Made by a program: the position numbers and the translations under genes. A DNA stretch of 64,000 bases, from IMG/VR virus record IMGVR_UViG_2718218136_000001, one strand, 5' to 3'. Below the pieces are notes generated by a model. It was not told where the DNA came from. It worked only from the letters and a program-made list of their open reading frames with translations, and made no database searches. This document shows positions 5,592 through 57,860 of the stretch, in pieces. Each line of letters opens with the position of its first letter. Position 1 is the stretch's first letter. Source of the stretch: a virus. Lineage: Duplodnaviria; Heunggongvirae; Uroviricota; Caudoviricetes.

Positions 5592-5887
5592 TAGATTGCT
5601 CTAATCTGGAGTCACCTGGCGTTTTCAGTTTGAGGTCGGAGATGCAATCTGATTTTTTACAGTTAGCGATCGCTTTTGCAGGATATGTTTGTATTGGCTT
5701 CTGTGTATACATGATCAGCCGAAAAATGCTTGTCGATATCGACCGCAAAGAACAAGCAGAGGAGATCTTAGTATGGATTTTCTTTGGCGCGGTCTGGCCA
5801 TTAGGGATCATGTTTGCTGCAACATTTCTTCTGATGTGGATATTCACCCTTCCAGGTGATTTCTATAGAAAAAAAGCCAGACATTGA
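5561..5887 (+). CDS. small hypothetical membrane protein
   Basis: Two hydrophobic helices (IAFAGYVCIGFCVYMI, ILVWIFFGAVWPLGIMFAATFLLMWIF); start likely an internal Met. Confidence 0.35.
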   Translation: MGYTGRIQRVIDCSNLESPGVFSLRSEMQSDFLQLAIAFAGYVCIGFCVYMISRKMLVDIDRKEQAEEILVWIFFGAVWPLGIMFAATFLLMWIFTLPGDFYRKKARH

Positions 5888-6010
5888 TACAATCGTTGCG
5901 GGTGCTTGAGGCTATCTGCTTCAGGCATTACCCGAAAAGCAGATAGAAGAAAGCCCCAGATAACATTACGCGTCCTGCAAGACGCTTAACATTAATCTGA
6001 GGCCATATCT

Positions 6011-6217
6011 ATGCTTAGCATACGTAGATTAGCCTCTTACCGACCAAAAGGTCAAGGAGAAGCAGGCTATGAAGCAGCAAAAAGCGATGTTAATCGCTCT
6101 GATCGTCATCTGTTTAACCGTCATTGTGACGGCACTGGTAACGAGGAAAGACCTCTGCGAGGTACGAATCCGAACCGGCCAGACGGAGGTCACTGTCTTC
6201 ACAGCCTACGAATCTGA
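6011..6217 (+). CDS. mok-like overlapping reading frame of the hok-like locus
   Basis: 68-aa ORF starting upstream of and overlapping the hok-like ORF in another frame, as in hok/mok/sok loci. Confidence 0.3.
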   Translation: MLSIRRLASYRPKGQGEAGYEAAKSDVNRSDRHLFNRHCDGTGNEERPLRGTNPNRPDGGHCLHSLRI

Positions 6218-6224
6218 AAGGTAA
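6069..6224 (+). CDS. hok: Hok/Gef-family type I toxin
   Basis: 51 aa MKQQKAMLIALIVICLTVIVTALVTRKDLCEVRIRTGQTEVTVFTAYESER; hydrophobic N-terminus followed by the conserved LTRK-LCE-R-R-G--EV--F-AYES pattern. Confidence 0.7.
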   Translation: MKQQKAMLIALIVICLTVIVTALVTRKDLCEVRIRTGQTEVTVFTAYESER

Positions 6225-6301
6225 GAGACCTGGCGGGGAGAGATCCCTGCCACTCTTCGTGTGTCAGGTATCCTCAATGCACCCTTTCCTCTCCAAATAA
6301 A

Positions 6302-34532: not shown

Positions 34533-35206
34533 TGGCACCCACAATTTATCACCGTATCGACGGTACCAAATACAGGAATGTCTGGGTTGTTGGTGATCTG
34601 CATGGTTGCTACACCAGACTGATGTCCGAACTCCATCGTGTGGATTTTGACCCGGCGCAGGATTTACTGATATCGGTCGGCGACCTTATCGATCGCGGTA
34701 CTGAAAATGTCGAATGTCTGGAACTATTGCAGATGCCCTGGTTCAGGGCAGTGATGGGGAACCATGAGCGGCTGATGATTGATGCGTTAAGTCCAGATGG
34801 CAACGTGAATAACTGGCTAATGAATGGCGGACAATGGTTCTTCATGCTGGACACTGATCAGGAAATATTAGCCTGGGCGCTGGTGGAGCTGGTAAAGCGT
34901 CTGCCCTATATCATTGAGTTGAACACGGGGCAAGAAACTATCGTTATAGCCCATGCCGACTATCCGGATAATGAATACCAATTCGGTAAGGAGGTGCCGC
35001 TTTTCAACGTTGTCTGGGCGCGCGAGCGTATCAGTGATTCGATGGATGATATTGGTGGCGAAATTTCGGGCGCAGATCGTTTTATCTTTGGTCACACTCC
35101 GGTGAAAAGCCCGAAGACATTCTGGAATCAGCAGTATATCGACACTGGTGCCGTATTTTGCGGAAACCTGACATTGATGAAAGTGAAAGGTGATGGTGCA
35201 GCATGA
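34514..35206 (+). CDS. ppp: Ser/Thr protein phosphatase (lambda-PPase family)
   Basis: Metallophosphatase motifs GDLHG, GDLIDRG, GNHE in canonical order. Confidence 0.75.
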
Positions 35207-36204
35207 AGATTGCTTTAGTTTTTCGCTCTGGTGGTGACTATAACGCTTCCGATGTGCAGTGGCTGGTTAATCAACTGCCAAAAGGCTATGAAATTATTTG
35301 CCTGACAGACCTGAAGCGTTTACATGTACCTGGCGTCAAAGTTGTCCCATTGATCAACCAGTGGCAAAAGTGCCGTGGCTGGTGGGCGAAAATCGAGTTG
35401 TTCCGACCGGATATAACCGATGATCTGTTCTATCTGGATTTGGACACGGTTATTGCCGGTGATATACGCCCAATCCTAGAGCATCCACCAACCAGCTTCA
35501 CCATGCTTAGGGATTTTTACCATCCACAATATCGTGGCAGCGGTGCCCTGTGGATACCAAATAGTGTTAAAGCGCATATCTGGAGTTCATTCTGGCAAGA
35601 TCCGGAAGGTTGGATTTCTCGTTGTGTCACTACTGAGTGCTGGGGTGACCAGGGGTTCTTACGAAAGGTTATGGGCGATGATACACCAGCATTTCAGGAT
35701 CTGTATCCAGGATGGTTTGTAAGTTACAAGGCCGATGTTGTGGAACCTGGTTCAAAATATGCGAGCGCGCGTTACTCCAGGGGGAATGGGGCATTACCAA
35801 AAGACTGCCGAATAATCTTTTTCCACGGCAAACCGCGACCTCGCGAAGTGTCAGAGGATTGGCTTCCCCTTATCAGCTCATTTTTTGAGCGAGAATCAGA
35901 ATATTATTGCTCTAATAATTCCGTATTTTTAAAACGTGATGTACACTCATCACGTTTTTTATTAGAGCAATCTACAAGGTGCACTATGTGGCCATTCCGA
36001 CGGAAATATCACTACTGGCTGATCGCCTTTGTTACGCCGACCGGCGGTATCAGGCATGTCATCACCAGGTATCGCAACAAGAGACTCACCTTAGCCAGAA
36101 TTTTACAGGCTGCCATAGGTGAGGGACTGGATACAAATTGCGTAGTCCTTCCTCCTTCATACTTAGGAAAAATGACCGAAGCACAAGCTAATACGGAACT
36201 TTGA
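35203..36204 (+). CDS. hypothetical protein with DxD-like motif; 3' third may be a separate unit
   Basis: 333-aa continuous ORF; [11 protein letters not shown] resembles a glycosyltransferase DxD motif; a C1-operator pair and hairpin lie inside the ORF at 35906-35971. Confidence 0.4.
35906..35971. promoter_or_regulatory. inverted pair of C1 operators flanking a perfect hairpin with T-run
   Basis: attgctctaataattcc (35906-35922, +) and gattgctctaataaaaaa (35955-35971, -) flank aaaacgtgatgtacactcatcacgtttttt. Confidence 0.5.
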
Positions 36205-36205
36205 A

Positions 36206-37468
36206 ATGAGCACTTCAGCACAAAACCAATCAATCGAAAATGTATGTATCCCTGATGTCCTGAATGCCGGTATCCCGGCCATTATCCAGAACATCCGGGC
36301 CGCGCAACGCCGCGTTAGTTGTGATGACCTCACAGCACGTTTTTTTGATAATGCGGTTCAGTCAGCGGAGATGCTTCACGCACAGCTTATTGATGTTTAT
36401 AACGCAGAAGCTGATAGCCATAACTCCCTGGTAGATGCAGCTGAAAATATGCAGTTGGATCTCGGTCTGAAGGGTAAAGAAATTGAAGAGCTTCAGCTGG
36501 AAATTGAACATTTGAAACGCCAGCAACAGGACGCGATCGACGATGCGACGCATGACGCCAACCAGCGTGCTGATAATGCCGAACGTATAAGCATTGAGCT
36601 GGAAACAAAACTCAATGAAATGACCGCGATGGTTGAACTGCGGAACTCACAGATTTCAACGCTAAAATCTCAATATAAAGAGATCATGAAACTTGATCCT
36701 TTTAACCTTGAGAAACGCTATAACAAAGCTAAAAGCGAGCGACAGGAACTGCGTAAGCAGGTCGCCGACCTTAACCAACAGCTCAAAAAAACTATTAAAG
36801 ATGCAAGCGAGGCGCGCGTGGCATTTGCTAATAAAAAAGCAGAGGTTACCGCGCTGGTTAATGAGAATGCCAAATTTGCGACGCTCAAGAAGGAAATGTA
36901 TGGCATTACTGAGCGCCGTTTCCCTGCAAGCAAACTTCATCCGACGTTAGGGCAAATCTCCTTCTTCCCGCGCCTCCTGGCTTATGGGATCTCATCGCCT
37001 AAAGAGTTCAATAACGAGCGTCCTTATATCGTTTCTAAGCTGGACTTTGCTTATCAGTTCTGCTGCGACATGGGCTATGCCATTGATATCCGAATCAACG
37101 AATGGTTGATGCCAAACTTCCAGCCGTTGGCAATTTTCCGCGAGTTCCAGCCGGAAGGTTGGGTAGAGTTCTTCCATGAATTGATCTGTAAAGAGATGGA
37201 AAGCCGCCGCCCGGAATTGGTCCGTCGAGTTGAGTGGGCGCAAGAGGTTATGTTGGCAGATGCAGAGCTGCCGTTCGAACCGGAATTCATTGATGATCTG
37301 GCAACTAAAGGGTTGCATACCCTGTTTGATGTGGTTACCCGCCGTCATGAGCAGTTGGTTGTCGAATTGGGTTTAGAGGAAACTGCGGCAAGAAGACTTC
37401 TCGATGTTTGCTATGCACGTAGCGATGCATGGGAAAAAGAGAACGGCGGCACTATTTACGTTCGCTGA
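36206..37468 (+). CDS. coiled-coil protein
   Basis: 420 aa; residues about 90-240 are heptad-rich (EELQLEIEHLKRQQQ..., ELRKQVADLNQQLKK). Confidence 0.5.
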   Translation: MSTSAQNQSIENVCIPDVLNAGIPAIIQNIRAAQRRVSCDDLTARFFDNAVQSAEMLHAQLIDVYNAEADSHNSLVDAAENMQLDLGLKGKEIEELQLEIEHLKRQQQDAIDDATHDANQRADNAERISIELETKLNEMTAMVELRNSQISTLKSQYKEIMKLDPFNLEKRYNKAKSERQELRKQVADLNQQLKKTIKDASEARVAFANKKAEVTALVNENAKFATLKKEMYGITERRFPASKLHPTLGQISFFPRLLAYGISSPKEFNNERPYIVSKLDFAYQFCCDMGYAIDIRINEWLMPNFQPLAIFREFQPEGWVEFFHELICKEMESRRPELVRRVEWAQEVMLADAELPFEPEFIDDLATKGLHTLFDVVTRRHEQLVVELGLEETAARRLLDVCYARSDAWEKENGGTIYVR

Positions 37469-37540
37469 TAGTTACAGTGTCACTTTTAATGCTGGTGGAG
37501 TGCTCCCACCAGCATTTTTTTCGTCCAATGAGGAGGGCAT

Positions 37541-38047
37541 TTGAGTATTTTCAATAAACACGCACACCAGGAACGTCCGTACATCGTCATAGTAGATATT
37601 GATGGGACGATATCAGAGGCAACGGAAGACAGGCTGCATTTACTTCCACCACCTGGCAAAGGTGCATTAACAGAGCACTGGAACGAGTTTAACCTTGCCT
37701 GTGACACTGATGCTCCCATCACTCCAGTTATTGATATGGTGCGCCAGTTATTTAACGTTTACACGGTCTGGTTTGTAACCGGGCGCTGTGAGATCGCAAG
37801 GGATAAAACACGAGCCTGGCTGCGGAAGTACGTAACAAACGGTGCTGAGCCTTTGCTATCTATGCGTCCTGCCACCGATGACAGAAATGACGGCCCAGCA
37901 AAGATTGATCTCCTTAAGAAAATTGGTCTAAGTAAAATCGCGTTCGCACTGGAAGATAAGATTGAAGTGGCGCGTGTTTTCAGGAGTCACGGCGTACTTA
38001 CGTTAATGGTCAGGGAGTATGAAAACGCACTTCTTCATCAACAATAA
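37541..38047 (+). CDS. HAD-like phosphatase (DxDGT motif)
   Basis: N-terminal IVIVDIDGTISE is HAD motif I; size fits small nucleotidases or Pnk-phosphatase-like proteins. Confidence 0.45.
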   Translation: MSIFNKHAHQERPYIVIVDIDGTISEATEDRLHLLPPPGKGALTEHWNEFNLACDTDAPITPVIDMVRQLFNVYTVWFVTGRCEIARDKTRAWLRKYVTNGAEPLLSMRPATDDRNDGPAKIDLLKKIGLSKIAFALEDKIEVARVFRSHGVLTLMVREYENALLHQQ

Positions 38048-38062
38048 TTGCTCTAATAAATC
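38046..38062 (+). promoter_or_regulatory. C1 operator
   Basis: attgctctaataaatct overlapping the stop codon of the HAD-like gene. Confidence 0.55.
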
Positions 38063-38313
38063 TTGATTTTTAAAACAGGGAAAGTGAAAATAAAAACATG
38101 CCGCAAGGGGCGCGGCATGTATCCAATCAATCACAGGAGCTGAAGATATGAACACGGCATTCAAAATCATTATGACCGCGATCTATTTCTGGCTGTTCTC
38201 TATCACTTTTGGCGGCATCGTCGCTCATGGGTAAGGGGAGTATATTAGCCATTTGGGACCCCACGGTCTCTTGCGGGTTTAATTAAGAACCCGCAAGAAA
38301 AATACGAATTGGG

Positions 38314-41300
38314 CTATATTTTTCCGCCTACGCCTTTAAACTTCTCAATAAACGAGACGATTTTCTGGAAAACTGCCTGTTTTTTCGTTTTATATTGCGG
38401 ATTTAACGGACTAAGTTTTGGTAATGTTTCGTTTAATTCTGTGCCATTTTCGGTGGCATATTCGCGTTTTAAAGACGTGCGAATATAGCGTTTTGCTGCA
38501 TCTTCATTGAGATTTTCTTCTTTTATCAATGCTTCTGCTTCACGTTGCTGTTCGCGTTGAGCAAACGTAAAGAATGCGTCAATGATGCTGGCTTTGTCCG
38601 GTAAATCATCCAGGTTCGTTTGCTGAATAAAATCGACCACCAGGCCCTCTTTAGCACGGTTCCCTAGGCTTGAACGAATTAAGCGTTTGACCTCTTCGAT
38701 CATTTCGCCCTTGCCTTTATTTTGTCTGTTGTGTTCGAAAATCAGTCCAAGGATATAATCCAGGTTTATTTCCTGAGACTTCAGCAAATCGACCTCAAAA
38801 ACTACGTCATCCCAGTCAGTGGTTGATTTCTCTTTTTTCTCAGCTTCTTTCTCACGGCGCTGCCAGTCGCGAATATCGTTATAGGCAGAACGATAATCCT
38901 GAATCTTGCGATCAGCAGGGAGACGAATTGTTTGCAATTTAGCGAACTTTTCATCATCCACATAATGCTCTGCTTTGAATTTTTCTACCGCAACAGGATC
39001 GCTAAGATCGATTTGTTGCAGGGCTTTTAGCGTGGCAAATTCATCATAGTTTTGCAGGATGTTCTCGGCACGCAGGTATTCGCCAAACAGTTTAACGAAG
39101 TCTTTCTTCTCTTTTTCACTTTCAATACTGGTAGGGTCAGGGAACCGTTGTTCCAGTTCTGAAACTACTGTCATAAAGCCGCGTTTAGCTTCACCAGTAG
39201 CAGCATCAGTAAAGCCTTCCATATACTCTGTATAACTCTTTTCTAACACCACATTTTTGGTGTTTTTGTCACCAAACAGCGTTATGGCATCAATAGTTGA
39301 GCGTTCCAGATCCCGGAAAGTGACGATATTACCGAAGGTTTTAGTAGCGTCATAAATGCGGTTGGTGCGGGAAAATGCCTGCATCAGGCCGTGAAAACGC
39401 AAGTTTTTATCGACGAATAGCGTGTTCAATGTTGGAGCATCGAAGCCGGTTAAAAACATCCCCACGACGATTAACAAGTCAACATCCTGATTTTTAACCC
39501 GCTGAGCCAGGTCCCGATAGTAGTTCTGAAAACCCTTGCTATCAGTACTGAAATTCATTTGAAAATGGTCGTTATATTCACGAATTGCAGCATCCAGAAA
39601 CTCTTTAGCACTGCTGTCCATTGCGCTGGTATCAAAAGTTTCATCGGAAATTTCACCAATGGCATTTTGTTCTTCATTAGCGGCAAAGGAGAAGATTGTC
39701 GCAACACGCAGCGGTTTATAGGTAGCCGATTTATTAGCGGCTTCTTCTTGTAACCGTTTAAACGTCGCATAATAGGCTTTCGCGGCATCCACGCTGCTCA
39801 CTGCCAGCATGGCATTAAAGCCTTTGGAGCCTGGGAAGGTACGGTGGGTTTTCTGGCGGAAGTTGTTCAGGATATATTGCGTGATTTCCTGAATACGCAT
39901 GGGATGAAGAAACGCCTGCTGATTTTCAGCCGCACTCAGTTTTTTCTCGTCAGTTTCTGTCTCTAAAGACTTAAACTGTGGCCGCACATCGTTGTAGTCC
40001 ACCTTGAATTTGAGCACTTTTTCGTCACGAATCGCATCGGTAATTACATACGAATGCAATTCACGACCAAATACGCTGGCGGTTGTTTCTGAGCCTAAGG
40101 CGTTTTCCGGGAAAATAGGGGTGCCGGTAAAACCAAACTGATAATAGCGTTTGAATTTCTTCTTCAGGTTTTTCTGCGCTTCTCCAAACTGGCTGCGGTG
40201 GCATTCATCAAATATAAACACCACTTGCTGATTATATACAGGCAGGTCGCTTTCTGCTTTCATCAGATTATTGAGTTTCTGAATAGTAGTGACGATAATT
40301 TTGTTATCGTCCTTATCCAGATTTCGTTTAAGGCCTGCGGTATTTTCCGAGCCGTTGACGCTGTCTGGCGAAAAACGCTGATATTCCTTCATGGTCTGGT
40401 AATCGAGGTCTTTCCTGTCGACCACAAAGAAGACTTTATCAATAAAGTCCAGCTCTGTTGCCAGACGCGCGGCTTTAAAGCTGGTGAGGGTTTTACCAGA
40501 ACCGGTAGTGTGCCAGATATACCCACCGCTTTCCGGTTTTGACCAGTTCTTCGCTGTAAAGGAACTCTTAATTTTCCACAGAATGCGCTCGGTGGCGGCA
40601 ATCTGGTACGGTCGCATCACCAGTAGCGTCTGACTACTGTCAAAAACGCTGTAGTTCACCAGAACATTCAGCAGAGTATGTTTCTGGAAAAAGGTAGCGG
40701 TAAAGTCTTTGAGGTCTTTAATCAGCGTGTTGTCTGATTTCGCCCAATTCATGGTGAAGTCAAAACTGTTTTTATCGCGCTTTGTCGTGTTGGCAAAATA
40801 ACGGGTATCGGTGCCGTTAGAAATGACAAACAGTTGCAGATACTTAAACAGGGAATTTTCGCTGTTAAAACTCTCTTTACTGTAACGATGTATCTGGTTG
40901 AAAGCCTCACGAATCGCCACCCCGCGTTTTTTTAGTTCGATTTGCACCAGCGGTAAACCATTAACCAGGATCGTGACGTCATAACGGTTAGCATGAGAAC
41001 CCGTCTGTTCAAACTGCTGGATAATCTGCACCTTATTGCGCATGAGATTCTTTTTATCTATCAAATAGATGTTCTCAAGTCGCTCGTCATCAAAAATAAA
41101 GTCGCAAATATAGTCGATATGGATTTTACGGGTCTTATCCAGAATGCCATCGCTCGGGTTGTCCAGATACTGCTCCGTGAAACGCCGCCACTCGCTGTCA
41201 TTAAACACCACACCATTGAGGCTCTGAAGCTGTTGTCGAACATTGGCCAGCATCGCCGACTGAGATTTTACGGATATAAATTCATAGCCCTGATTTCGCA

Positions 41301-41430
41301 GGTCCTGAATCAGTTCACGTTCCAGGTCCGATTCGCTCTGGTAGCTGTCGCCTGTTGGCTCAGCTTTGATGTACTTATCAAGAACGATAAAGTTATTGGA
41401 TTCAGCAATGGTGTGTGTCTGATGAGTCAT
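38314..41430 (-). CDS. hsdR: type I restriction enzyme R subunit (EcoR124-like, family IC)
   Basis: 1038 aa; SF2 motifs GSGKT ([11 protein letters not shown]) and DEAH-type [10 protein letters not shown]; same length as EcoR124I HsdR as recalled. Confidence 0.85.
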
Positions 41431-41551
41431 AGCGCATCCTTTGTGCCGTCTGGCAAGGGCCGGAAGGGGGGTAATGGTGACTTCCGGCGCGTAAAAAATA
41501 GTCTATATACTGACCGGGTGTTAAGGTGGTCCGATCGGTAGCAATGATCAA

Positions 41552-42783
<1,232 letters not shown>

Positions 42784-42787
<4 letters not shown>

Positions 42788-44346
42788 TTTTGCACCTCGC
42801 AGCCTTCAATTTCAGCCACAATCGCATCAATATCTTTACGCAACTGGTCGATTTTGCTGACCGTGGTTTTCAGCTCAGCATTCAGCTCAGCAATATCGAT
42901 AATTTCGCGGTTATCTTTCGCTTCCACATAGCTGCTCACCGACAGGTTATAGTCATTAGCAACAACGGTCTCAAACGCGACAGATTTCGCCAGATGAGCA
43001 ACATCTTCCTTGCTGGCAAATACCTGCATAATCTGTTCGATATGGGTATCGGTCAGGATATTGTTGTTAGTCTCTTTTTTGAACAGTTCGCTGGCGTCAA
43101 TAAACTGAACGTTGGTATCCGTTTTATGTTTGGACAGAACCAGAATGTTTACTGCAATGGTGGTGCCAAAGAACAGGTTCGGTGCCAGTGAAATTACGGT
43201 TTCGACATAGTTATTGTCAATCAGATACTGACGGATTTTCTGCTCCGCGCCGCCACGGTAAAAAATACCCGGGAAGCAAACAATCGCAGCACGACCTTTG
43301 GCAGAAAGATAGTTCAGCGCATGTAGTACAAAGGCGAAGTCAGCTTTTGATTTGGGGGCCAGAACGCCAGCCGGGGCAAAACGCTCATCGTTAATCAGTG
43401 TCGGGTCATCGCTGCCAATCCATTTCACCGAATACGGCGGGTTAGAAACGATGGCATCAAACGGTTTTTCATCTCTGAAGTGCGGCTCAGTCAGTGTATT
43501 ACCCAGCCTGATATCAAACTTGTCGTAGTTGATGTTGTGCAAAAACATGTTCATACGCGCCAGATTATAGGTCGTATGGTTGATTTCCTGACCGAAAAAG
43601 CCTTCTTCGATGATATGGTTATCAAACTGCTTTTTAGCCTGCAACAACAGTGAGCCGGAACCCGCTGCCGGGTCGTAGATTTTGTTAACGTTGGTCTGCC
43701 CGTGCATAGCCAGTTGTGCAATCAGCCTGGAGACGTGCTGCGGTGTAAAGAACTCACCGCCTGACTTACCAGCATTCGCCGCATAGTTAGAAATCAGGAA
43801 CTCATAGGCATCGCCGAACAGGTCAATCTGATGTTCGTTAAAGTCGCCAAGCTTTAAGCCTTCAACCCCTTTCAGGACCGCAGCCAGGCGGGCATTTTTA
43901 TCCTTAACGGTGTTACCCAGGCGGTTACTGGTGGTATCGAAATCAGCAAACAGACCTTTGATGTCTGCTTCTGAAGGATAACCGTAAGCAGAACTTTCGA
44001 TAGCAACGAAGATGCTGTTTAAATCTGCATTCAGTCTGTCATTGGTATTTGCTTTCGCCGCTACGTTGCAGAAAAGCTGACTGGGGTAGATGAAGTAGCC
44101 TTTAGTTTTGATGGCATCGTCTTTAATATCATCAGTAATTACGCTGTCATCCAGTTTCGCATAACAGATACTGTCATCACCGGCTTCAATATAGCTGGAA
44201 AAATTTTCGCTGATAAAACGGTAGAAAAGTGCGCCCAGAACGTATTGCTTAAAATCCCATCCATCGACCGAACCCCTGACATCGTTAGCAATTTGCCAGA
44301 TTTGACGATGAAGCTCTGCACGTTGTTGAATACTTGTCATTTTCAT
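42784..44346 (-). CDS. hsdM: type I N6-adenine methyltransferase M subunit
   Basis: 520 aa with VSNPPYS motif IV and AdoMet-binding region; stop overlaps the hsdS start. Confidence 0.85.
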
Positions 44347-44522
44347 CCACTTATTTCAGGCTTATGTAATTGGATGTGATTCTACAGCAACTTGGATGCT
44401 TTAGCAGTTCGGATATTAGGCTACGAATGACCTGCCTAGAGGTTTGTTAAGCCGCAAAGTGCTGGTGCTTTATGTCTGTGAAGTTTATAATTGCGTACAC
44501 ATAACGAGTACACGAGGTATTT

Positions 44523-44744
44523 ATGCAATCCATTAACTTCCGTACCGCGCGCGGCAACCTTTCTGAAGTGCTCAACAATGTTGAAGCCGGGGAAGAGGTT
44601 GAAATCACCCGCAGAGGCCGTGAGCCAGCAGTAATTGTCAGCAAGGCTACTTTCGAAGCCTACAAAAAAGCGGCGCTGGATGCTGAATTTGCATCCCTGT
44701 TTGACACCCTGGACTCCACCAACAAGGAACTGGTTAACCGATAA
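44523..44744 (+). CDS. phd: antitoxin Phd
   Basis: 73 aa [56 protein letters not shown]...; stop overlaps the doc start. Confidence 0.9.
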
Positions 44745-45124
44745 TGAGGCATATATCACCGGAAGAACTTATTGCGCTTCATGATGCGAATATAAGCCGC
44801 TACGGCGGCCTGCCGGGAATGTCAGATCCGGGTAGGGCAGAGGCCATTATCGGGAGAGTTCAGGCCAGAGTTGCCTACGAAGAGATCACCGACCTTTTCG
44901 AAGTCTCCGCCACCTACCTGGTGGCTACAGCGAGAGGGCATATATTCAATGATGCCAATAAGCGTACCGCGCTAAACAGCGCGCTGCTATTTCTACGCCG
45001 TAACGGGGTGCAGGTATTTGATTCACCTGAACTGGTAGACCTTACCGTAGGGGCTGCGACCGGAGAGATATCTGTATCTTCTGTCGCCGACACGTTACGT
45101 AGATTGTATGGTTCTGCGGAGTAG
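44744..45124 (+). CDS. doc: toxin Doc (Fic-fold kinase)
   Basis: 126 aa; Fic-like motif [11 protein letters not shown]; directly downstream of phd. Confidence 0.9.
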
Positions 45125-45308
45125 ATTAATGGCACGTAAATACAACAAGTTGTCCCGTGAAGCGTTAAAGATGCTTCTTGATGGCGTGAGCCGCCGCAAG
45201 GTAAAGCAATACCTGGTTGGTAAGCAAATTGGAGTCAGGACCGCTATTGCTGTGTTATGCCGTCAGGAAATGGTTGTGCTTAAACAGAGAATGCCGGGCA
45301 GCAGATAA
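45108..45308 (+). CDS. small hypothetical protein (post-doc position)
   Basis: 66-aa ORF; likely start MARKYNKL. Confidence 0.3.
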
Positions 45309-45335
45309 AGCCCAATCAGTGATTAAAGGTGTGAT

Positions 45336-46379
45336 GTGAAAGCCATAATTACTCCCTTTGTACAGAAAGAGCTTGGCCTCGCCACGTTCAAAGTGGATCA
45401 GGAGGTCAGAAAGCTGGTGGAGGCTGGCCGTAAATTTATTATGGAGCCGGTGCCGCGTGAGTTAATCGAGCACATGGAAGACGGCCTCGTTGTTACCGAG
45501 CAAACCATGGCAACAAATGAGGCGTTGCAGCCGTTTTTTAACAGCGATGAACTGTTTCGCCGTATTGGTGGAATTGACGCGCTGGTGGCGTGGTTGCGTA
45601 AGAAAGAGGGTCAATGCCAGGCCGCAGATCGTAGTTGGTGTGACAACCATATTGTCCACGCTGAACGAGACAATAGCGCGGTGTTGTTGTGCTGGCATCA
45701 CGATAACCATTATCGGATGCGTGGTTTTAATGAGCTGAAAGAAACGCTGCACAATAATCGCGTTAACTGGATACTGGATGTCGCCCGTCAGGAAATGGGC
45801 CTTTCAAATAGCCATGATTTAAGTATTCAGGAGCTGTGCTGGTGGGCTTTCATGCGCAACATGATGCACCTGATGCCGGAAGAAGTCTGCCGCATATCAA
45901 TAAATAAGATGAAGGCTACTCCGCAGGATAGCGGACCTCTGAAAGAGGCGGATATTCGCCCGTATGACGATCGCGCTACAGCATATGTTCAGATGATGGA
46001 AGAACGCGCCGCGCCGATGCGTGCAAAAGTATGCCCTGTGGATGTTGACTCCGACCCTGGCATGGCGCATTTCAAAATACCAAAACTGCAATCGCTAAAA
46101 TTACCTGAGTACATGGACTTTGTTGCTTCCCGTCCATGCTGTGGGTGTGGAGCTGCGGGAGCTGGCGCTCACATTACGCCTCATATCGTTCGTCATAGTC
46201 GATTATGCGCGCATGACATTTACGCAATTCCTCTGTGCCAGTCATGCCAGCGTGATATTGAGCGTGACCGCGATAATTGGGAGAAGACGCACGGTAGGTT
46301 GGCGATGCATCAACGATTGTTCTTTGATTACGCGCTTGGAGTCGGCGCTATCACAAGTCACTCGTCGAACGTTAGGTAA
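45336..46379 (+). CDS. hypothetical Cys-rich protein (post-doc position)
   Basis: 347-aa ORF with C-terminal Cys cluster [10 protein letters not shown]...[15 protein letters not shown]. Confidence 0.5.
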
Positions 46380-46380
46380 A

Positions 46381-46397
46381 ATTGCTCTAATGTATTG
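46381..46397 (+). promoter_or_regulatory. C1 operator-like site upstream of the lpa-like gene
   Basis: attgctctaatgtattg. Confidence 0.45.
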
Positions 46398-46467
46398 CTA
46401 TTTATTTAATCTATGGTATTATATTCCACGTTGATTAGTTGACATGGGCTAATCAGTAGGTGACAGG

Positions 46468-46920
46468 ATGTTACTTAACTGGCAGGGACGCCACTTCATG
46501 GAAATAAATCACTTACGAATAACATCGTATGAGATTGCGGATTACATGATCCGCACCAAATCTCTTCTATCAGCGAAAGAACTCGCAGCAATCCTTGAAA
46601 AGGAATACCCGCATCTGGATGTCGATAAGCGCGACGTTTATCTGCGCTTAAAGGCTATCGCTGTGTCTAAGTATTCGTCTGTTTTGATTGATGACAGTAC
46701 ACGCCCACGTAGATTTCAGATCCACTCTCTGAATCCTGAATTCTTTCGCCGCAGCCGCGCGCCGCGCCGGTTTGATGAAAAACTCCAGAACGAACTCTAT
46801 ATGACGCAGGACGAAAAGGAACGCCGGGAACACCAGCCTTGGGTAATGGCGCGTCAACTTTTCAATAAGGTAGCCCGTCAGCACCGTCATTACGGTAATG
46901 CCACATCCGCACGTATCTGA
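46468..46920 (+). CDS. lpa: late promoter activator-like protein
   Basis: About 140-150 aa ORF preceded by a C1 operator and located just upstream of pacA, as lpa (gene 10) is in P1. Confidence 0.45.
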   Translation: MLLNWQGRHFMEINHLRITSYEIADYMIRTKSLLSAKELAAILEKEYPHLDVDKRDVYLRLKAIAVSKYSSVLIDDSTRPRRFQIHSLNPEFFRRSRAPRRFDEKLQNELYMTQDEKERREHQPWVMARQLFNKVARQHRHYGNATSARI

Positions 46921-47005
46921 TTGATTGCTTGCCCGTTCCGGGCCTTTTGACATGTGACTTTCGTTACCCTCGCGTCAAAAAGAGTTTTTACGAAAGGAAG
47001 CATAA

Positions 47006-48199
47006 GTGACCTGGGACGATCACAAGAAGAATTTTGCTCGCCTGGCGCGAGATGGTGGTTACACCATCGCACAATATGCCGCCGAGTTTAATCTCAACCC
47101 AAACACCGCACGTCGTTATCTCCGTGCATTCAAAGAAGACACCAGAACAGCGGACAGCCGTAAGCCAAATAAGCCTGTCAGGAAACCACTAAAAAGCATG
47201 ATCATTGATCACGCTAATGATCAACGTGCAGGTGATCACATTGTGGCTGAAGTGGCTGAAAAACAAAGAGTTAATGCTGTTGTCAGTGCCGCAGTCGAGA
47301 ACGCTAAGCGCCAAAATAAGCGCATAAATGATCGTTCTGATGATCATGACGTGATCACCCGCGCCCACCGTACCTTACGTGATCGCCTGGAACGCGACAC
47401 CCTGGATGATGATGGTGAACGCTTTGAATTCGAAGCTGGCGATTACCTGATAGATAACGTTGAAGCGCGGAAGGCCGCGCGCGCTATGTTGCGTCGGTCC
47501 GGGGCCGATGTTCTGGAAACCACTCTTCTGGAAAAGTCTCTTTCTCATCTCCTTATGCTGGAGAACGCCAGGGATACGTGCATTCGCCTGGTGCAGGAAA
47601 TGCGCGATCAGCAAAAAGACGATGATGAAGGTACTCCGCCTGAATACCGTATCGCGAGCATGCTAAACAGCTGTTCCGCGCAGATAAGCAGCCTGATCAA
47701 CACCATTTACAGCATCCGGAATAACTATCGAAAAGAAAGCCGGGAGGCGGAAAAGCACGCTTTATCTATGGGGCAAGCTGGCATTGTTAAGCTGGCATAC
47801 GAACGAAAGCGTGAAAATAACTGGTCAGTGCTGGAAGCGGCTGAATTCATCGAGGCGCATGGAGGAAAAGTGCCGCCCCTGATGCTGGAGCAAATCAAAG
47901 CCGATCTGCGTGCTCCTAAGACCAATACCGATGATGAGGAAAATCAAACAGCATCTGGCGCTCCATCACTTGAAGATCTGGATAAAATCGCGCGAGAACG
48001 GGCCGCCAGCCGCCGCGCTGATGCCGCATTGTGGATTGAGCATCGTAGAGAAGAAATTGCCGATATCGTCGATACAGGTGGTTATGGTGATGTCGATGCG
48101 GAAGGCATATCAAACGAAGCATGGCTTGAACAGGATCTGGACGAAGACGAGGAGGAAGACGAAGAAGTTACCCGCAAACTGTACGGGGATGATGATTAA
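47006..48199 (+). CDS. pacA: terminase small subunit / pac-recognition protein PacA
   Basis: 397 aa, the length recalled for P1 PacA; contains the pac hexamer cluster; acidic C-terminus. Confidence 0.85.
47199..47356. other. pac packaging site: seven TGATCA/G hexamers with Dam GATC sites (four plus three)
   Basis: tgatca at 47199, 47206, 47218, 47233; tgatcg at 47329; tgatca at 47341 and 47351. Confidence 0.8.
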
Positions 48200-49683: not shown

Positions 49684-49685
49684 AA

Positions 49686-49702
49686 ACTTGCTCTAATAAA
49701 TT
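49686..49702 (+). promoter_or_regulatory. C1 operator preceding the second icd/ant-like module
   Basis: acttgctctaataaatt directly after the pacB stop. Confidence 0.55.
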
Positions 49703-49879
49703 GTGTTTTTTGACTGCCGATGTTACATTGAACCTGACCTCTTGCGCCTTGAGGCATTTTCGGTTTATGCTTATCAGGCACCTCATTAAAACGGGTGCCG
49801 GGATTGAGACCCCGGATAATGTCAAAGGCGACACAGACGCCGAAAGCGTCTTTTTTTGTGTCATGCCATCGCACAGCCA

Positions 49880-50040
49880 TACGTAGCGTTTAGCTCCGAA
49901 ATCAATGGTAGTGCTGGCTGGGCTGCCGAAAGGCAGGCCGGTTCCCTTTGACGCCGGTAGTCTCAACCCAGTCAGTGCTACCGCCATTGAGATTGAGACC
50001 TCACGCGGTAGCTCCTTAACTTAGTCAAAGGAGGCTGCCA
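49880..50040 (+). ncRNA. candidate second c4-like antisense RNA region (very approximate)
   Basis: Upstream leader of the icd paralog; ccctttgac (49944-49952) is complementary in 8 of 9 positions to gtcaaagga (50024-50032) at the RBS. Confidence 0.25.
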
Positions 50041-50042
50041 TT

Positions 50043-50264
50043 ATGGCTACTGTCCCTACCCCAACTCATCCTGAATTCATCTGGCGCTTCTATTCCTGCC
50101 AGAAACGTCACTATCACTTCGTTATTGCACCGACAGAAGATGAGGCCCGTTCTCAGCTTCCTGACGCTCCCTGCATTTTCTCTGCCCGCTTTTCCACTGA
50201 TTCGCGCAACTCTCTCAGTTACTGGTGCCTCCCTGTTAACGCTTCTGCTCAGGAGGGACTATGA
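50043..50264 (+). CDS. Icd-like protein, second copy
   Basis: 73 aa, highly similar to the first copy (shared PEFIWRFYSC..HYHFVIA.TEDEARSQLPD.PCIF.ARFST.SRNSLSYW). Confidence 0.7.
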   Translation: MATVPTPTHPEFIWRFYSCQKRHYHFVIAPTEDEARSQLPDAPCIFSARFSTDSRNSLSYWCLPVNASAQEGL

Positions 50265-51376
50265 GAACGTCATTAGTCACCCGTGAAGAAATGATTGAGG
50301 CAATTGAACAGCACACATCCTGTATCAGTACCAGGGATATACCGGGCGTTATTGCCAACTACTTCATGATCACCAAACAACTTTACCGGAGAAAGGACAA
50401 GAACGCTGTTCACCGCATTCTGTTGTCTGATATCCGCGAATACCTGCTCGAACAGGGGCATCTGAATTACGCAACCGTCGCAGCCGAAACACGCAAGGAG
50501 GCACACAGAATGAAAGCAACTAACGTTAAATCAGAAAAAACTCATGCACCTTCAGTTCAGGAATCGGAGCTGGTGGTTGTTCAGAATCAGTCTGATGAAA
50601 TTCCCGTTCTGGAATGGCTGGGAGTGCGTGTAGTGACAACTAAGATCCTTGCTAAGGGGTATGGGACAGATGCGGATAACATCAAGAAGAACTTTTCCCG
50701 TAATGCTGAACGTTTTTGTGAAGGCAAGCATTTCTATAAAGTTATTGGAGATGATTTGAACAATTTGCGGGTGACTTTAAGTAACTCACAAAATCCTATC
50801 TCTCCTAAAGCCCGCTCACTCATCCTCTGGACGGAACGCGGCGCAGCCCGCCACGCTAAAATGATCGAAACCGATCAGGCATGGGCATTCTTTGAAAAAC
50901 TGGAAGACAGCTACTTCCGACAAAAAGAACAGCAACCGATCGCAATCCCCCAGACGCTTCCAGAAGCTCTGCGCCTTGCTGCCGAACTGGCTGAACAAAA
51001 GCAACTTCTGGAACAGAAAGCCCATCAGCTAAATCAGCAGCTGGTGGCCGCAGCCCCCAAAGTCGATTTTGCCGACCGGGTATCAGTGGCTAAGGGGATC
51101 CTGATTGGGAATTTTGCAAAGGTCGTTGGACTTAAACAAAATGCGCTGTTTGCCTGGTTACGGGAGAACGGCATTCTGATAGCGTCCGGCGGCCGTAAAA
51201 ATGTACCGTTCCAGCAGTACATAAACGCCGGATATTTCACAGTGAAAGAAGTGGTGCTGGATGATGAAGAGGGCTACCAGATACGGCTGACGCCCCAATT
51301 AACGGGGAAAGGCCAACAGTGGTTGACGCGTAAACTGCTCGATGCTGGCTTGTTAAAACCGGTGGCGGCTGAATAA
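50261..51376 (+). CDS. antirepressor-like protein, second copy, with a different central domain
   Basis: 371 aa; N- and C-terminal regions parallel Ant (LVTR.E..EAI..HT.C..TR.IPG.IANYFMIT; C-terminal PQTLPEALRLAAELAEQK...GKGQQWLT); unique central segment PVLEWLGVRVVTTKILAKGYG. Confidence 0.7.
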   Translation: MRTSLVTREEMIEAIEQHTSCISTRDIPGVIANYFMITKQLYRRKDKNAVHRILLSDIREYLLEQGHLNYATVAAETRKEAHRMKATNVKSEKTHAPSVQESELVVVQNQSDEIPVLEWLGVRVVTTKILAKGYGTDADNIKKNFSRNAERFCEGKHFYKVIGDDLNNLRVTLSNSQNPISPKARSLILWTERGAARHAKMIETDQAWAFFEKLEDSYFRQKEQQPIAIPQTLPEALRLAAELAEQKQLLEQKAHQLNQQLVAAAPKVDFADRVSVAKGILIGNFAKVVGLKQNALFAWLRENGILIASGGRKNVPFQQYINAGYFTVKEVVLDDEEGYQIRLTPQLTGKGQQWLTRKLLDAGLLKPVAAE

Positions 51377-55803: not shown

Positions 55804-56445
55804 ATGGATAAGAAAATATGCGTTGTTTCAATGAGCGTCGGCAAACCGGCGTCAATGACTGCTGCATGGATCAACAATGAGCTGATCATGGCTGAGCGGA
55901 CCAGCTACCCTGAACGCCGCCGCGATATGGAACTCCAGCTGCTGCGCGAATTGCGAGAAAAAGAGGAAAAGGGTTTTATCGTGCTGGTGGAAGAGGAAAA
56001 CAGCTTTATTACCGGTCGAGTTGGCCAGCGTGTAAGGTTGCGTGATCCCTTCATGAACGGCAGACCGGTACTGATTGAAGCAATGCAGATTTACAAGGAA
56101 TTGGAACGCCAGAAAGCGATCAAGTTACCGCGCAAGGAATCCGGCAAATACATCCTTCACCAAAGCATCTTCGATTCCGAACACGATAAAAAAGGCGATG
56201 AATTTTTCAACATCAACTGGAGCGAAATAACGACAGAACATGTTCTGACGTTACTATGTTGCTTTGCGACGGAATACAACAACGTTGCCAGCGCCGACTA
56301 CATCAGGGCAATGGCTGGAGAAGTTGAGGCCCGCCAGGAGCCATCGTTACTAAGCCCTCTGATTAACAGAATTCGCGGAACCCAAACGCTGGCACAAAAA
56401 CGGGTGCCGAAAGGGGAATTAACAGGAAAAGGAAATTATCTATAA
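55804..56445 (+). CDS. hypothetical protein (mat position)
   Basis: About 213 aa from MDKKICVV; phage-typical GC content; sits between ref and the low-GC island. Confidence 0.45.
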   Translation: MDKKICVVSMSVGKPASMTAAWINNELIMAERTSYPERRRDMELQLLRELREKEEKGFIVLVEEENSFITGRVGQRVRLRDPFMNGRPVLIEAMQIYKELERQKAIKLPRKESGKYILHQSIFDSEHDKKGDEFFNINWSEITTEHVLTLLCCFATEYNNVASADYIRAMAGEVEARQEPSLLSPLINRIRGTQTLAQKRVPKGELTGKGNYL

Positions 56446-56501
56446 ACGTCAATGCATTAGGGTATACTTCTCCATAGAACTATAAGTAAATGGAGTAAGT
56501 A

Positions 56502-57602
56502 ATGAGCGAATATGTTGAGTTAGCATACGCTGCCGCTACAAGCAGGCTTTGTCTATTTACCGGGACTGGCTTTTCAAAGGCAGTCTCGAACGGCGAAGCA
56601 CCAACGTGGAAAGAACTATTAAAAAAAGTTTGCAGCAAAGTTCACAACGCCAAACAGTTGGAAGACACGTTATTCCCTGATGATAAACCACCAGCACTGA
56701 GTCTTGAAGAAGCCGCACAAATACTATCTTTGAAGCTCAACATTGAAGGCAAGTCGATTTATGATGAAATTGTTGACATCATATCTCCAATACAACTTGG
56801 CGAAGATATATCAAATATAAAGGATTTTTTTCAAAAAAGAACATTTCGTGTCATTACAACGAATTATGACAAGTTAGCTGAATACTTAACTGGAGATGAG
56901 GAGGTTCAGTCTATTACCCCAGGCTTACCTATTCCTAAATATCCCTCCAAAGTTAAAATATATCATGTCCATGGTTCTATTGACTCTCCACAAAACATGA
57001 TTGTTACATCAGAAGACTATTTTAGGTTTATAAACTCCGACACTTATTTCTCTCGAAAACTTAGCACGATGCTGCATGAAAATACAGTTGCGATATTAGG
57101 CTATTCTTTAAGCGACACGAACCTAAAAGCAATTATAAATGATTACAAAATATTCTCGAAAGGTAACACTCTGTGCTCTAATATATTTTTCATCTCTCGC
57201 AGTGAAGTAAGTCAAGATATGAAGGATTATTATTTTTATTGTTTTGGAATACGAGTAATTGACAACACCGAAATAGACTCTTTCTTTAAGAGATTGAGCA
57301 TTAACATAATGTTAATTGAAGGCGTCATAGCAAGAGCCAGACAAAGTATAAAAAGAGTTTTATCAGGCACTTTTAACTATAAGGATGAATACATTAGATT
57401 AGAAGATTCATTCTATCAAATAACTTCCTCGATTATATCTGAGGGTTTCGACTGGAATGACGGACAAGTAGTTGATTTTTTTCAAGAGAATAATAAAACA
57501 AAAAAGAGACTTAACAAGAGAGAGTGGTGCTTGGGAGCAATACGAGCAGCTTGCAAAATGGCTTATATATTTCGGCAGCCTTTTAGAAATTGGTGGAACT
57601 AA
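56502..57602 (+). CDS. SIR2-like (SIR2_2-type) NAD-binding protein, candidate anti-phage defence effector
   Basis: 366 aa with LFTGTGFS (Rossmann GxGxS), VITTNYD and YHVHGS motifs in the order seen in defence-associated SIR2 domains; strongly AT-rich relative to its flanks. Confidence 0.65.
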   Translation: MSEYVELAYAAATSRLCLFTGTGFSKAVSNGEAPTWKELLKKVCSKVHNAKQLEDTLFPDDKPPALSLEEAAQILSLKLNIEGKSIYDEIVDIISPIQLGEDISNIKDFFQKRTFRVITTNYDKLAEYLTGDEEVQSITPGLPIPKYPSKVKIYHVHGSIDSPQNMIVTSEDYFRFINSDTYFSRKLSTMLHENTVAILGYSLSDTNLKAIINDYKIFSKGNTLCSNIFFISRSEVSQDMKDYYFYCFGIRVIDNTEIDSFFKRLSINIMLIEGVIARARQSIKRVLSGTFNYKDEYIRLEDSFYQITSSIISEGFDWNDGQVVDFFQENNKTKKRLNKREWCLGAIRAACKMAYIFRQPFRNWWN

Positions 57603-57860
57603 GTATGAAAATGAATATTTAGACGCCGTTGAATACTCAATGTCCAACATGAGCAAAGAAATGAGATTAGGTTATTCGTGGCATGCTTATAGAGCTTGGG
57701 AAACAAGATGGTCCACAATCATTGCTTCAAATCGATTAATAATAAAAAACGCATCGAAGAAATTGGCGTACTGGAGGATGCTAATTCTATAGTAAAAGAT
57801 ATAGTGTAATTGAAGAGCGGCAAAAATTTAACGGGCAGCTACAACTGCCCGATATATAAA

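Follow-up and report, generated by a model that had tools for sequence, protein, structure and literature searches.

What occupies the DNA beside the phd–doc addiction module of a P1-like phage-plasmid, at the place where P1 itself carries humD, and is it likely to work? The question is raised by a 64,000-nt stretch of viral DNA (IMG/VR record IMGVR_UViG_2718218136_000001, Caudoviricetes; the whole stretch is referred to here as the window), in which hsdM, hsdS and hsdR, together spanning positions 38314–44346, were predicted to form a complete type IC restriction-modification system. The reading that we favor, with a probability of roughly 85%, is that these genes encode a functional type IC system of the EcoR124 family, which an IncY P1-like phage-plasmid carries as accessory cargo in the variable interval between pap and phd. 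The only part of the locus with possible novelty is hsdS, which is probably an uncharacterised specificity allele. Its product has the architecture TRD(GAA)–CR1(3×TAEL)–TRD(GAA)–CR2 (TRD, target recognition domain; CR, conserved region), a feature on which the original prediction did not remark.

The three genes lie on the minus strand. They comprise hsdM (42784–44346), for a 520-aa N6-adenine methyltransferase subunit; hsdS (41552–42787), for a 411-aa specificity subunit, the start of which shares 4 nt with the hsdM stop; and hsdR (38314–41430), for a 1038-aa restriction and translocase subunit with an EcoR124-type C-terminal domain. HsdR matches the TIGR00348 profile (E = 2.9e-230) and the Pfam domains HSDR_N, SWI2_SNF2/ResIII, T1R_D3 and EcoR124_C (PF12008; E = 2.1e-71, residues 728–1031), and contains the nuclease residues D151/E165/K167, the QxxxY motif (Q179/Y183), the Walker A motif GSGKT at 310 and DECH at 408. 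HsdM matches TIGR00497 (1.8e-194) together with Pfam HsdM_N and N6_Mtase, and carries motif I (DPAAGSG) at 225 and motif IV (NPPY) at 302; HsdS matches Methylase_S and the PADLOC profile Specificity_I (1.6e-142). The subunit sizes given for the EcoR124 family in the original prediction proved right, as HsdR residues 1–1038 (PDB 2w00/7bst, EcoR124 HsdR; 2w00_A, 2290 bits) and HsdM residues 1–520 (7bst_D, 1159 bits) align with the EcoR124 structures end to end. Type I families are defined by subunit exchange (PMC12707154); the type IC conserved regions of HsdS, CR1 and CR2, are near-identical to those of EcoR124 HsdS. By profile, motif and full-length structural alignment, the block is thus identified as a complete and intact EcoR124-family (type IC) restriction-modification system, as had been proposed. 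An exact-sequence look-up did not find the HsdM protein in a collection of 15 billion proteins, probably because its RefSeq start lies 2 aa downstream.

Two noncoding segments on the same strand presumably supply expression signals. EcoR124 is organized with two promoters. The 100-nt hsd-specific leader upstream of hsdM (44347–44446) is the presumed promoter region for hsdM–hsdS, and the 121-nt spacer between hsdS and hsdR (41431–41551), which contains a promoter-like consensus site at 41524–41495 (TTAACA-18-TATTTT), presumably holds a separate promoter for hsdR.

The duplicated domain within hsdS is exact. HsdS residues 1–203 are near-identical to EcoR124 HsdS (PDB 7bst_A) over its N-terminal TRD and central conserved region, and residues 209–368 are an exact repeat of residues 6–165. 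At the nucleotide level, hsdS nt 15–495 and nt 624–1104 are identical at 481 of 481 positions with an offset of 609 nt. On the minus strand of the window, the first copy (42293–42773) is the EcoR124 N-terminal TRD, which recognizes GAA (PMC2877798), and the second (41684–42164) stands where the RTCG-reading TRD is found in EcoR124. The alignment shows both TRD positions of HsdS to hold what by homology is the GAA-reading domain and, because the two are 100% identical in sequence, it follows that their half-site preference should be the same. The central conserved region between them contains three tandem 12-nt TAEL repeats (42239–42274, minus strand; residues 172–183), which set the length of the spacer in the target; relative to the two-repeat PDB sequence, the third repeat is a 4-aa insertion. 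An AlphaFold2 model of HsdS (predicted local distance difference test, pLDDT, 71) comprises a pair of globular domains with a long helix after each, and its top fold match in the PDB is EcoR124I HsdS (7bst_A; template modeling scores 0.67/0.71).

Together, the two GAA-reading TRDs and the three TAEL repeats lead us to predict that the window HsdS reads the palindrome GAA(N8)TTC. The engineered half-S subunit of EcoR124I, which has two TAEL repeats, dimerizes to read GAA(N7)TTC, and the methylated adenines are separated by 7 nt (PMC2877798, PMC12707154 Table 1, PMC3874165); in type IC alleles that have four more residues the separation is 8 nt (EcoR124II, EcoDXXI and the EcoDXXI truncation reading TCA(N8)TGA; PMC12707154, PMC3874165). 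For the related 407-aa alleles described below, the predicted target is GAA(N7)TTC. Avoidance of the target by the window itself gave no signal, with counts of 17, 26, 19 and 31 for GAA(N6)TTC to GAA(N9)TTC, respectively, against approximately 17 expected. A literature full-text search for GAAN7TTC or GAAN8TTC, which did not cover REBASE, returned only two papers, both on the engineered EcoR124I-NT enzyme, and no natural enzyme; a 2014 review of type I enzymes gives NgoAV, which has a truncated S subunit, as the single natural palindrome-reading type I system known (PMC3874165). Should GAA(N8)TTC methylation be confirmed, the window would encode a type IC enzyme with natural, covalent symmetry.

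Assemblers are prone to mishandle perfect repeats such as this one of 481 nt, and it must be asked if the duplication in hsdS arose in assembly or is the non-functional outcome of recombination. The system would then lack activity, or the true gene would be either a normal two-TRD hsdS or one of half size. Sibling loci that are otherwise 99.9–100% identical but contain one or three units lend some weight to this explanation, as does the rarity of full-length double alleles, which were found in 11 PLSDB records and in 5 of 5,426 complete E. coli genomes. Only records with the whole gene as a single ungapped alignment were counted, since both query copies align with a single TRD in the subject and BLAST summary counts therefore cannot be used to separate double from EcoR124-type alleles. 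The exact 411-aa protein is also missing from the 15-billion-protein collection by exact look-up, although this is no sign of rarity, since an identical HsdS exists in RefSeq (WP_059338147.1, from a Norwegian red-fox isolate). The same double-TRD architecture is present in isolates from an Australian gull, E. marmotae and sheep, with hsdS approximately 2% diverged from that of the window. It recurs in complete plasmids that are independent of one another, come from several countries and hosts, and have hsd backgrounds approximately 3% apart. In the gull plasmid, which was examined in detail, the TRD copies are identical at 477 of 481 positions, the four differences indicating copies that have diverged. 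Three further proteins (P0016–P0018) combine the double GAA TRD with two TAEL repeats, one of them (P0018) with matching substitutions in both copies, and all unit-number versions of the gene are in frame. Finally, engineered single-TRD S subunits of EcoR124 and EcoDXXI are active (PMC2877798, PMC3874165), so that two identical TRDs are compatible with function. On this evidence we consider an artefact or dead gene quite improbable.

The sibling alleles form a series in which the 609-nt unit is present once, twice or three times, the corresponding proteins having 208 aa, 411 or 407 aa, and 614 aa. The one-unit form, found in four PLSDB records with loci otherwise 99.6–99.9% identical, is exemplified by NZ_CP074035.1 (4953–5579), where a 627-nt hsdS encodes a 208-aa half-S subunit (TRD plus CR2) that is an exact deletion product. 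The three-unit form (CP099227.1, 487–2331) is an in-frame 1845-nt hsdS that encodes 614 aa; it comes from the same farm study as its sibling plasmid and the three-unit plasmid is exactly 609 bp longer. These copy-number states may in part be assembly-dependent. Databases also contain alleles with the GAA TRD at position 1 (EcoR124-type; P0079) and others in which it stands at position 2 and a different TRD comes first (P0043 and the locus L010). Both parental types exist, and the double allele is likely to have arisen when a position-1 and a position-2 GAA allele recombined once within their common central region, by the kind of module reassortment known for type IC systems. A more speculative extension, which we regard as doubtful, is that the 609-nt unit of TRD and conserved region would be a recombinationally unstable tandem cassette, the copy-number and TAEL changes of which would switch spacer length or activity within a population in a phase-variation-like manner. 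To our knowledge, such a mechanism has not been described for the EcoR124 family; if true, the cassette would provide P1-like phage-plasmids with a type IC specificity subunit that is natural, full-length and symmetric. If GAA(N8)TTC is confirmed as the target, the series of one, two and three units would also be a simple system for studying S-subunit evolution by unequal recombination.

In enzymes of this type, HsdM2–HsdS1 methylates the adenines of a bipartite target, and addition of two HsdR subunits turns the complex into a translocase, driven by ATP, and a nuclease that cleaves DNA with unmethylated targets. In a lysogen, the hsd system of the window would accordingly be expected to restrict unmodified incoming phage and plasmid DNA, while the DNA of the element itself would be modified, so that its progeny virions would be able to enter hosts of the same specificity. 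Several points weigh against a functional system of this specificity. Activity is predicted from the sequence, and restriction alleviation is able to silence type IC systems. The promoter scan gave, overall, no more sites than shuffled sequence, and the HsdS model is of only moderate confidence (pLDDT 71; predicted template modeling score 0.57). The choice of an N8 rather than an N7 spacer would extrapolate from truncated homodimers to a covalent double-TRD protein, and the 19 GAA(N8)TTC sites in the window, neither avoided nor enriched against the approximately 17 expected, are uninformative. Moreover, the existence of the three-unit, 614-aa sibling indicates that the repeat is unstable, and some copies may be non-functional.

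A different role has also to be considered for the same genes. As predicted, the system adjoins phd–doc, which lies on the opposite strand and diverges from hsdM across a gap of 176 bp, and on IncF plasmids the two travel as one unit bounded by IS1 insertion sequences (IS). This tight linkage would fit a main selected role in plasmid maintenance, through post-segregational killing together with phd–doc, rather than in defense against phages. However, restriction alleviation in type I systems, including type IC, makes both the acquisition of such a system and DNA damage that gives rise to unmodified sites non-lethal (PMC12707154), phd–doc already provides addiction, and reshuffling of TRDs is a signature of diversifying selection on target specificity that fits defense better. 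We therefore hold maintenance to be hardly probable as the main role, and retain the reading of the block as functional defense cargo.

How the block came to lie at this site was addressed by comparison with P1, a synteny check that confirmed a replacement. The left flank in the blastn alignment (window 35000–38238) matches P1 81246–84482 with 98.9% identity and the right flank (window 44447–48000) matches P1 87970–91523 with 98.1% identity; P1 homology ends at 38238 and resumes at 44447. The intervening non-P1 block (38239–44446; 6,208 bp) stands for P1 84483–87969 (3,487 bp), an interval of nine genes from pmgT to humD, and has a GC content of 0.436 compared with 0.485 in the flanks. Both junctions are sharp, the left one lying 3 nt past the stop codon of a small open reading frame (ORF) and the right one inside the last 4 nt (TTAA) of humD. 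The original prediction had described either an insertion or a replacement at a hotspot: of these, the alignment supports only the second, a clean replacement at a variable locus in which nine genes are lost and not humD alone. The flanks were also to be checked for recombination scars, and none were found: there are no direct or inverted repeats at the junctions, no IS elements at the locus in the window, and no shared homology between the hsd block and the P1 block that it replaces, only short similarity at chance level (best E-value 0.22). Because the junctions lack repeats and the locus lacks IS elements, transposon- or integrase-mediated insertion at the window locus was rejected. The displaced P1 84483–87969 sequence has no blastn match within the 64-kb window (approximately 31 kb of the element lie beyond it).

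Loss of the displaced genes appears to be tolerated. All tested genes were non-essential in a CRISPR interference screen of P1, in which the replaced interval was dispensable (PMC10695390), and a laboratory P1 ‘del res del mod’ isolate (OP279344, 35748–36830) has a truncated pmgT joined directly to phd, with pmgU–humD missing. On the strength of the screen and of this independent loss, the replaced pmgT–humD genes are dispensable.

The arrangement of hsd genes beside P1 DNA is not new. The RefSeq annotation of P1 notes that P1 84263–84482 matches the DNA that lies downstream of hsd in EcoDXXI and R124/3 and that P1 87969–88647 matches sequence upstream of EcoDXXI hsd, and also flags P1 84399–84482 among the stretches relevant to hsd-locus homology; the window junctions (P1 84482 and 87969/87970) coincide with these annotated EcoDXXI and R124/3 homology limits. 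A 1997 study by Tyndall et al. (Mol Microbiol 23:729) is, going by its title, reportedly devoted to type IC hsd loci with P1 DNA. P1 itself, as the original prediction had stated, has no type I system and carries humD directly upstream of phd, and its reference records thus do not hold these genes at this position. Beyond P1, the layout recurs in two deposited P1-like phages (vB_EcoM-673R5 and phi456) and in at least 161 PLSDB plasmids that cover at least 80% of a query comprising hsd and 5.2 kb of P1 flank on each side, which by this coverage are assigned as P1-like plasmids with hsd at this exact locus. From the P1 annotation, the 1997 title, and these plasmids and phages, we conclude that the arrangement was already described in 1997 and annotated in the P1 reference record. 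The prediction in its original form therefore rediscovers the classical link between type IC hsd genes and P1 DNA, and confirms the pap–phd interval as a cargo site.

The wider distribution illustrates how mobile this module is. The hsd block alone matches 1494 PLSDB plasmids, 600 of which cover at least 80% of it. Of 60 evenly spaced rows from the PLSDB matches to the query of hsd plus P1 flanks, six are P1-like plasmids without hsd, which hold 6.5–11.3 kb of other cargo in the interval (ead/Ea22-like genes, DUF4752, TnpB and, once, ISEcp1 with CTX-M-15) and in which humD still adjoins phd; the pap–phd interval is a real cargo hotspot of P1-like phage-plasmids. A further nine of the 60 are non-P1 plasmids, mostly from E. 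coli, that hold only the part of the locus corresponding to window 38155–45610 (hsd and phd–doc–pdcA). In one conjugative IncF plasmid (NZ_CP045279.1, 3249–12613), hsdRSM–phd–doc–pdcA is bracketed by IS1A and IS1B and retains 84 bp of the P1 left flank, a worked example of one hsd–phd–doc module common to phage-plasmids and IncF conjugative plasmids. Among complete E. coli genomes in RefSeq, a type IC-like hsdS match occurs in 1313 of 5,426, with 938 chromosomal and 676 plasmid places. Two P1-like elements of approximately 93–94 kb (NZ_CP116245.1 and CP057875.1) have the same hsd locus with an additional prrC-like anticodon nuclease gene, as in the EcoprrI arrangement. Separately, the 111-kb Klebsiella phage vB_KpnS_p4727 (PQ492289.1, 4119–10052) contains a type IC hsd operon 82.6% identical to that of the window, the match being limited to hsd; the type IC family thus also rides on a second, unrelated group of phage-plasmids.

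The direction of the replacement is a matter of history, with no bearing on function. It is possible, though on balance unlikely, that the hsd state is the older one in this lineage and that the pmgT–humD block of P1 is the later replacement. The best argument for this order comes from the terminator: downstream of hsdR there is a single canonical intrinsic one (38120→38096, minus strand; identified by terminator scan and RNA folding), and it lies in P1-homologous DNA, in a flank that is 98.9% identical to P1, where the nearest annotated minus-strand gene of P1 is lxr, approximately 2.5 kb away. In addition, hsd is present in about as many P1-like plasmids as lack it (161 records versus 6 of 60 evenly spaced rows), and the IS1-bounded IncF modules keep the 84 bp of P1 left flank together with phd–doc–pdcA, which implies that the P1-like element from which the module departed already contained hsd at this site. 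The lower GC content of the hsd block relative to its flanks (0.436 versus 0.485) argues for the reverse order, as does the position of humD, which adjoins phd in P1, SJ46, other P1-like phages and the locus L011. In E. coli, type IC hsdS is also found on the chromosome more often than on plasmids (938 versus 676 places), so an outside source is plausible.

The assignment of the element as a whole rests on its alignment with P1. The 64-kb window is collinear with P1 in ten aligned segments that are 96–99% identical, bar one short secondary match at 86%, interspersed with six variable segments that have no P1 match. The P1-matching genes run in the order pmgC, sim, repL, structural genes, par/rep, dmt, ban, and tail and head genes, and continue through pap, phd–doc, pac, c1, cre, ref and mat up to darB. 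Complete plasmids that are identical or near-identical to the window are 95–108 kb in size and typed IncY. Together, the high-identity collinear match and the IncY typing of these plasmids identify the window as belonging to an IncY P1-like (Punavirus) phage-plasmid.

The flanks of the hsd block retain the annotated features of P1 on the plus strand. To the right (44447–45124; approximately 98% identity to P1 by blastn) lie the −10 element of Pphd (TATAAT, 44486–44491, with coordinates transferred from the P1 annotation), phd (44523–44744) and doc (44744–45124), both genes being matched in searches with TIGR01552 and TIGR01550. To the left (37541–38238; P1 annotation and sequence) are pap (37541–38047), the C1 operator OpmgT (attgctctaataaatct) with the PpmgT promoters (approximately 38048–38093; P1 annotation), and a 28-aa hydrophobic ORF (38148–38234; MNTAFKIIMTAIYFWLFSITFGGIVAHG) that has no annotation in P1. 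The window thus keeps the OpmgT and PpmgT of P1 (38048–38234), directed through the 28-aa ORF at the 3′ end of hsdR. Since these C1-controlled promoters are retained and face the 3′ end of hsdR, they could drive antisense transcription into hsdR upon prophage induction.

Other variable segments of the window carry different contents. Between mat and lxc, where P1 has its type III res–mod system, the window has a non-P1 segment (56314–57851) with an ORF (56502–57602, plus strand) for a 366-aa SIR2_2-domain protein (Pfam 3e-23; PADLOC matches PDC-S25, ThsA-like and LmuA-like). The type III system of P1 is absent from the window and this candidate defense gene is in its place, giving the element a different defense cargo than P1 at two hotspots. 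A second non-P1 insert, between pacB and c1 (49684–51025), is associated with an ORF (50261–51376, plus strand) for a 371-aa antirepressor-like protein with ORF6N and ANT/KilAC domains; window 51026–51360 is 86% identical to P1 ant1. Further segments without a P1 match lie at 795–2170 (sim/immI region), 5606–6298 (rlfA–rlfB region) and 20879–21307 (inside dmt), the first two of which coincide with published variable regions of P1-like elements.

Comparison with known systems places the hsd locus in familiar company and sets its hsdS apart. A 2022 survey of P1-like phage-plasmids lists pmgT–humD as variable region 8 of eight (PMC9603915), which is the same interval as is replaced here; in the parts of the survey that were consulted, the region is called variable without a type IC system being named as its occupant. 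The EcoDXXI and EcoprrI loci have the same left and right P1 junctions (84482 and 87969), with phd–doc immediately upstream of hsdM, but their TRDs differ from those of the window (TCA/RTTC and CCA/RTGC, respectively), and EcoprrI has an inserted prrC that the window lacks. The closest relatives, EcoR124I and EcoR124II (from plasmids R124 and R124/3), share full-length HsdR and HsdM, a near-identical N-terminal TRD, the TAEL region and the C-terminal conserved region, as well as the gene order hsdM–hsdS–hsdR and the P1-derived flank downstream of hsdR, and EcoR124II has three TAEL repeats, as does the hsdS of the window. They differ from it in the second TRD, which reads RTCG in EcoR124 and is a second GAA-reading copy in the window, and in the host replicon, an IncF conjugative plasmid for EcoR124 and an IncY P1-like phage-plasmid here.

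The movement of a TRD between positions also has a precedent. In the type I S genes of Helicobacter pylori, TRDs move between positions 1 and 2 by “domain movement” (DoMo), via conserved flanking repeats (Furuta et al. 2011, described in PMC3467074). As in the hsdS of the window, a TRD with conserved flanks changes position within one S gene family; the H. pylori case concerns another organism and another type I family, and in the window hsdS there is, in addition, a tandem unit of 609 nt with variable copy number. The closest parallels in specificity are the engineered EcoR124I-NT and HsdS(delta50) subunits, the EcoDXXI truncations and the natural NgoAV, all of which are also type IC and combine two copies of one N-terminal TRD to read a palindromic bipartite target. 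The window allele also has a natural half-S sibling of 208 aa. However, EcoR124I-NT, the EcoDXXI truncations and NgoAV have half-size S subunits that act as non-covalent dimers, whereas the window hsdS encodes both TRDs in one full-length polypeptide, together with CR1 and CR2.

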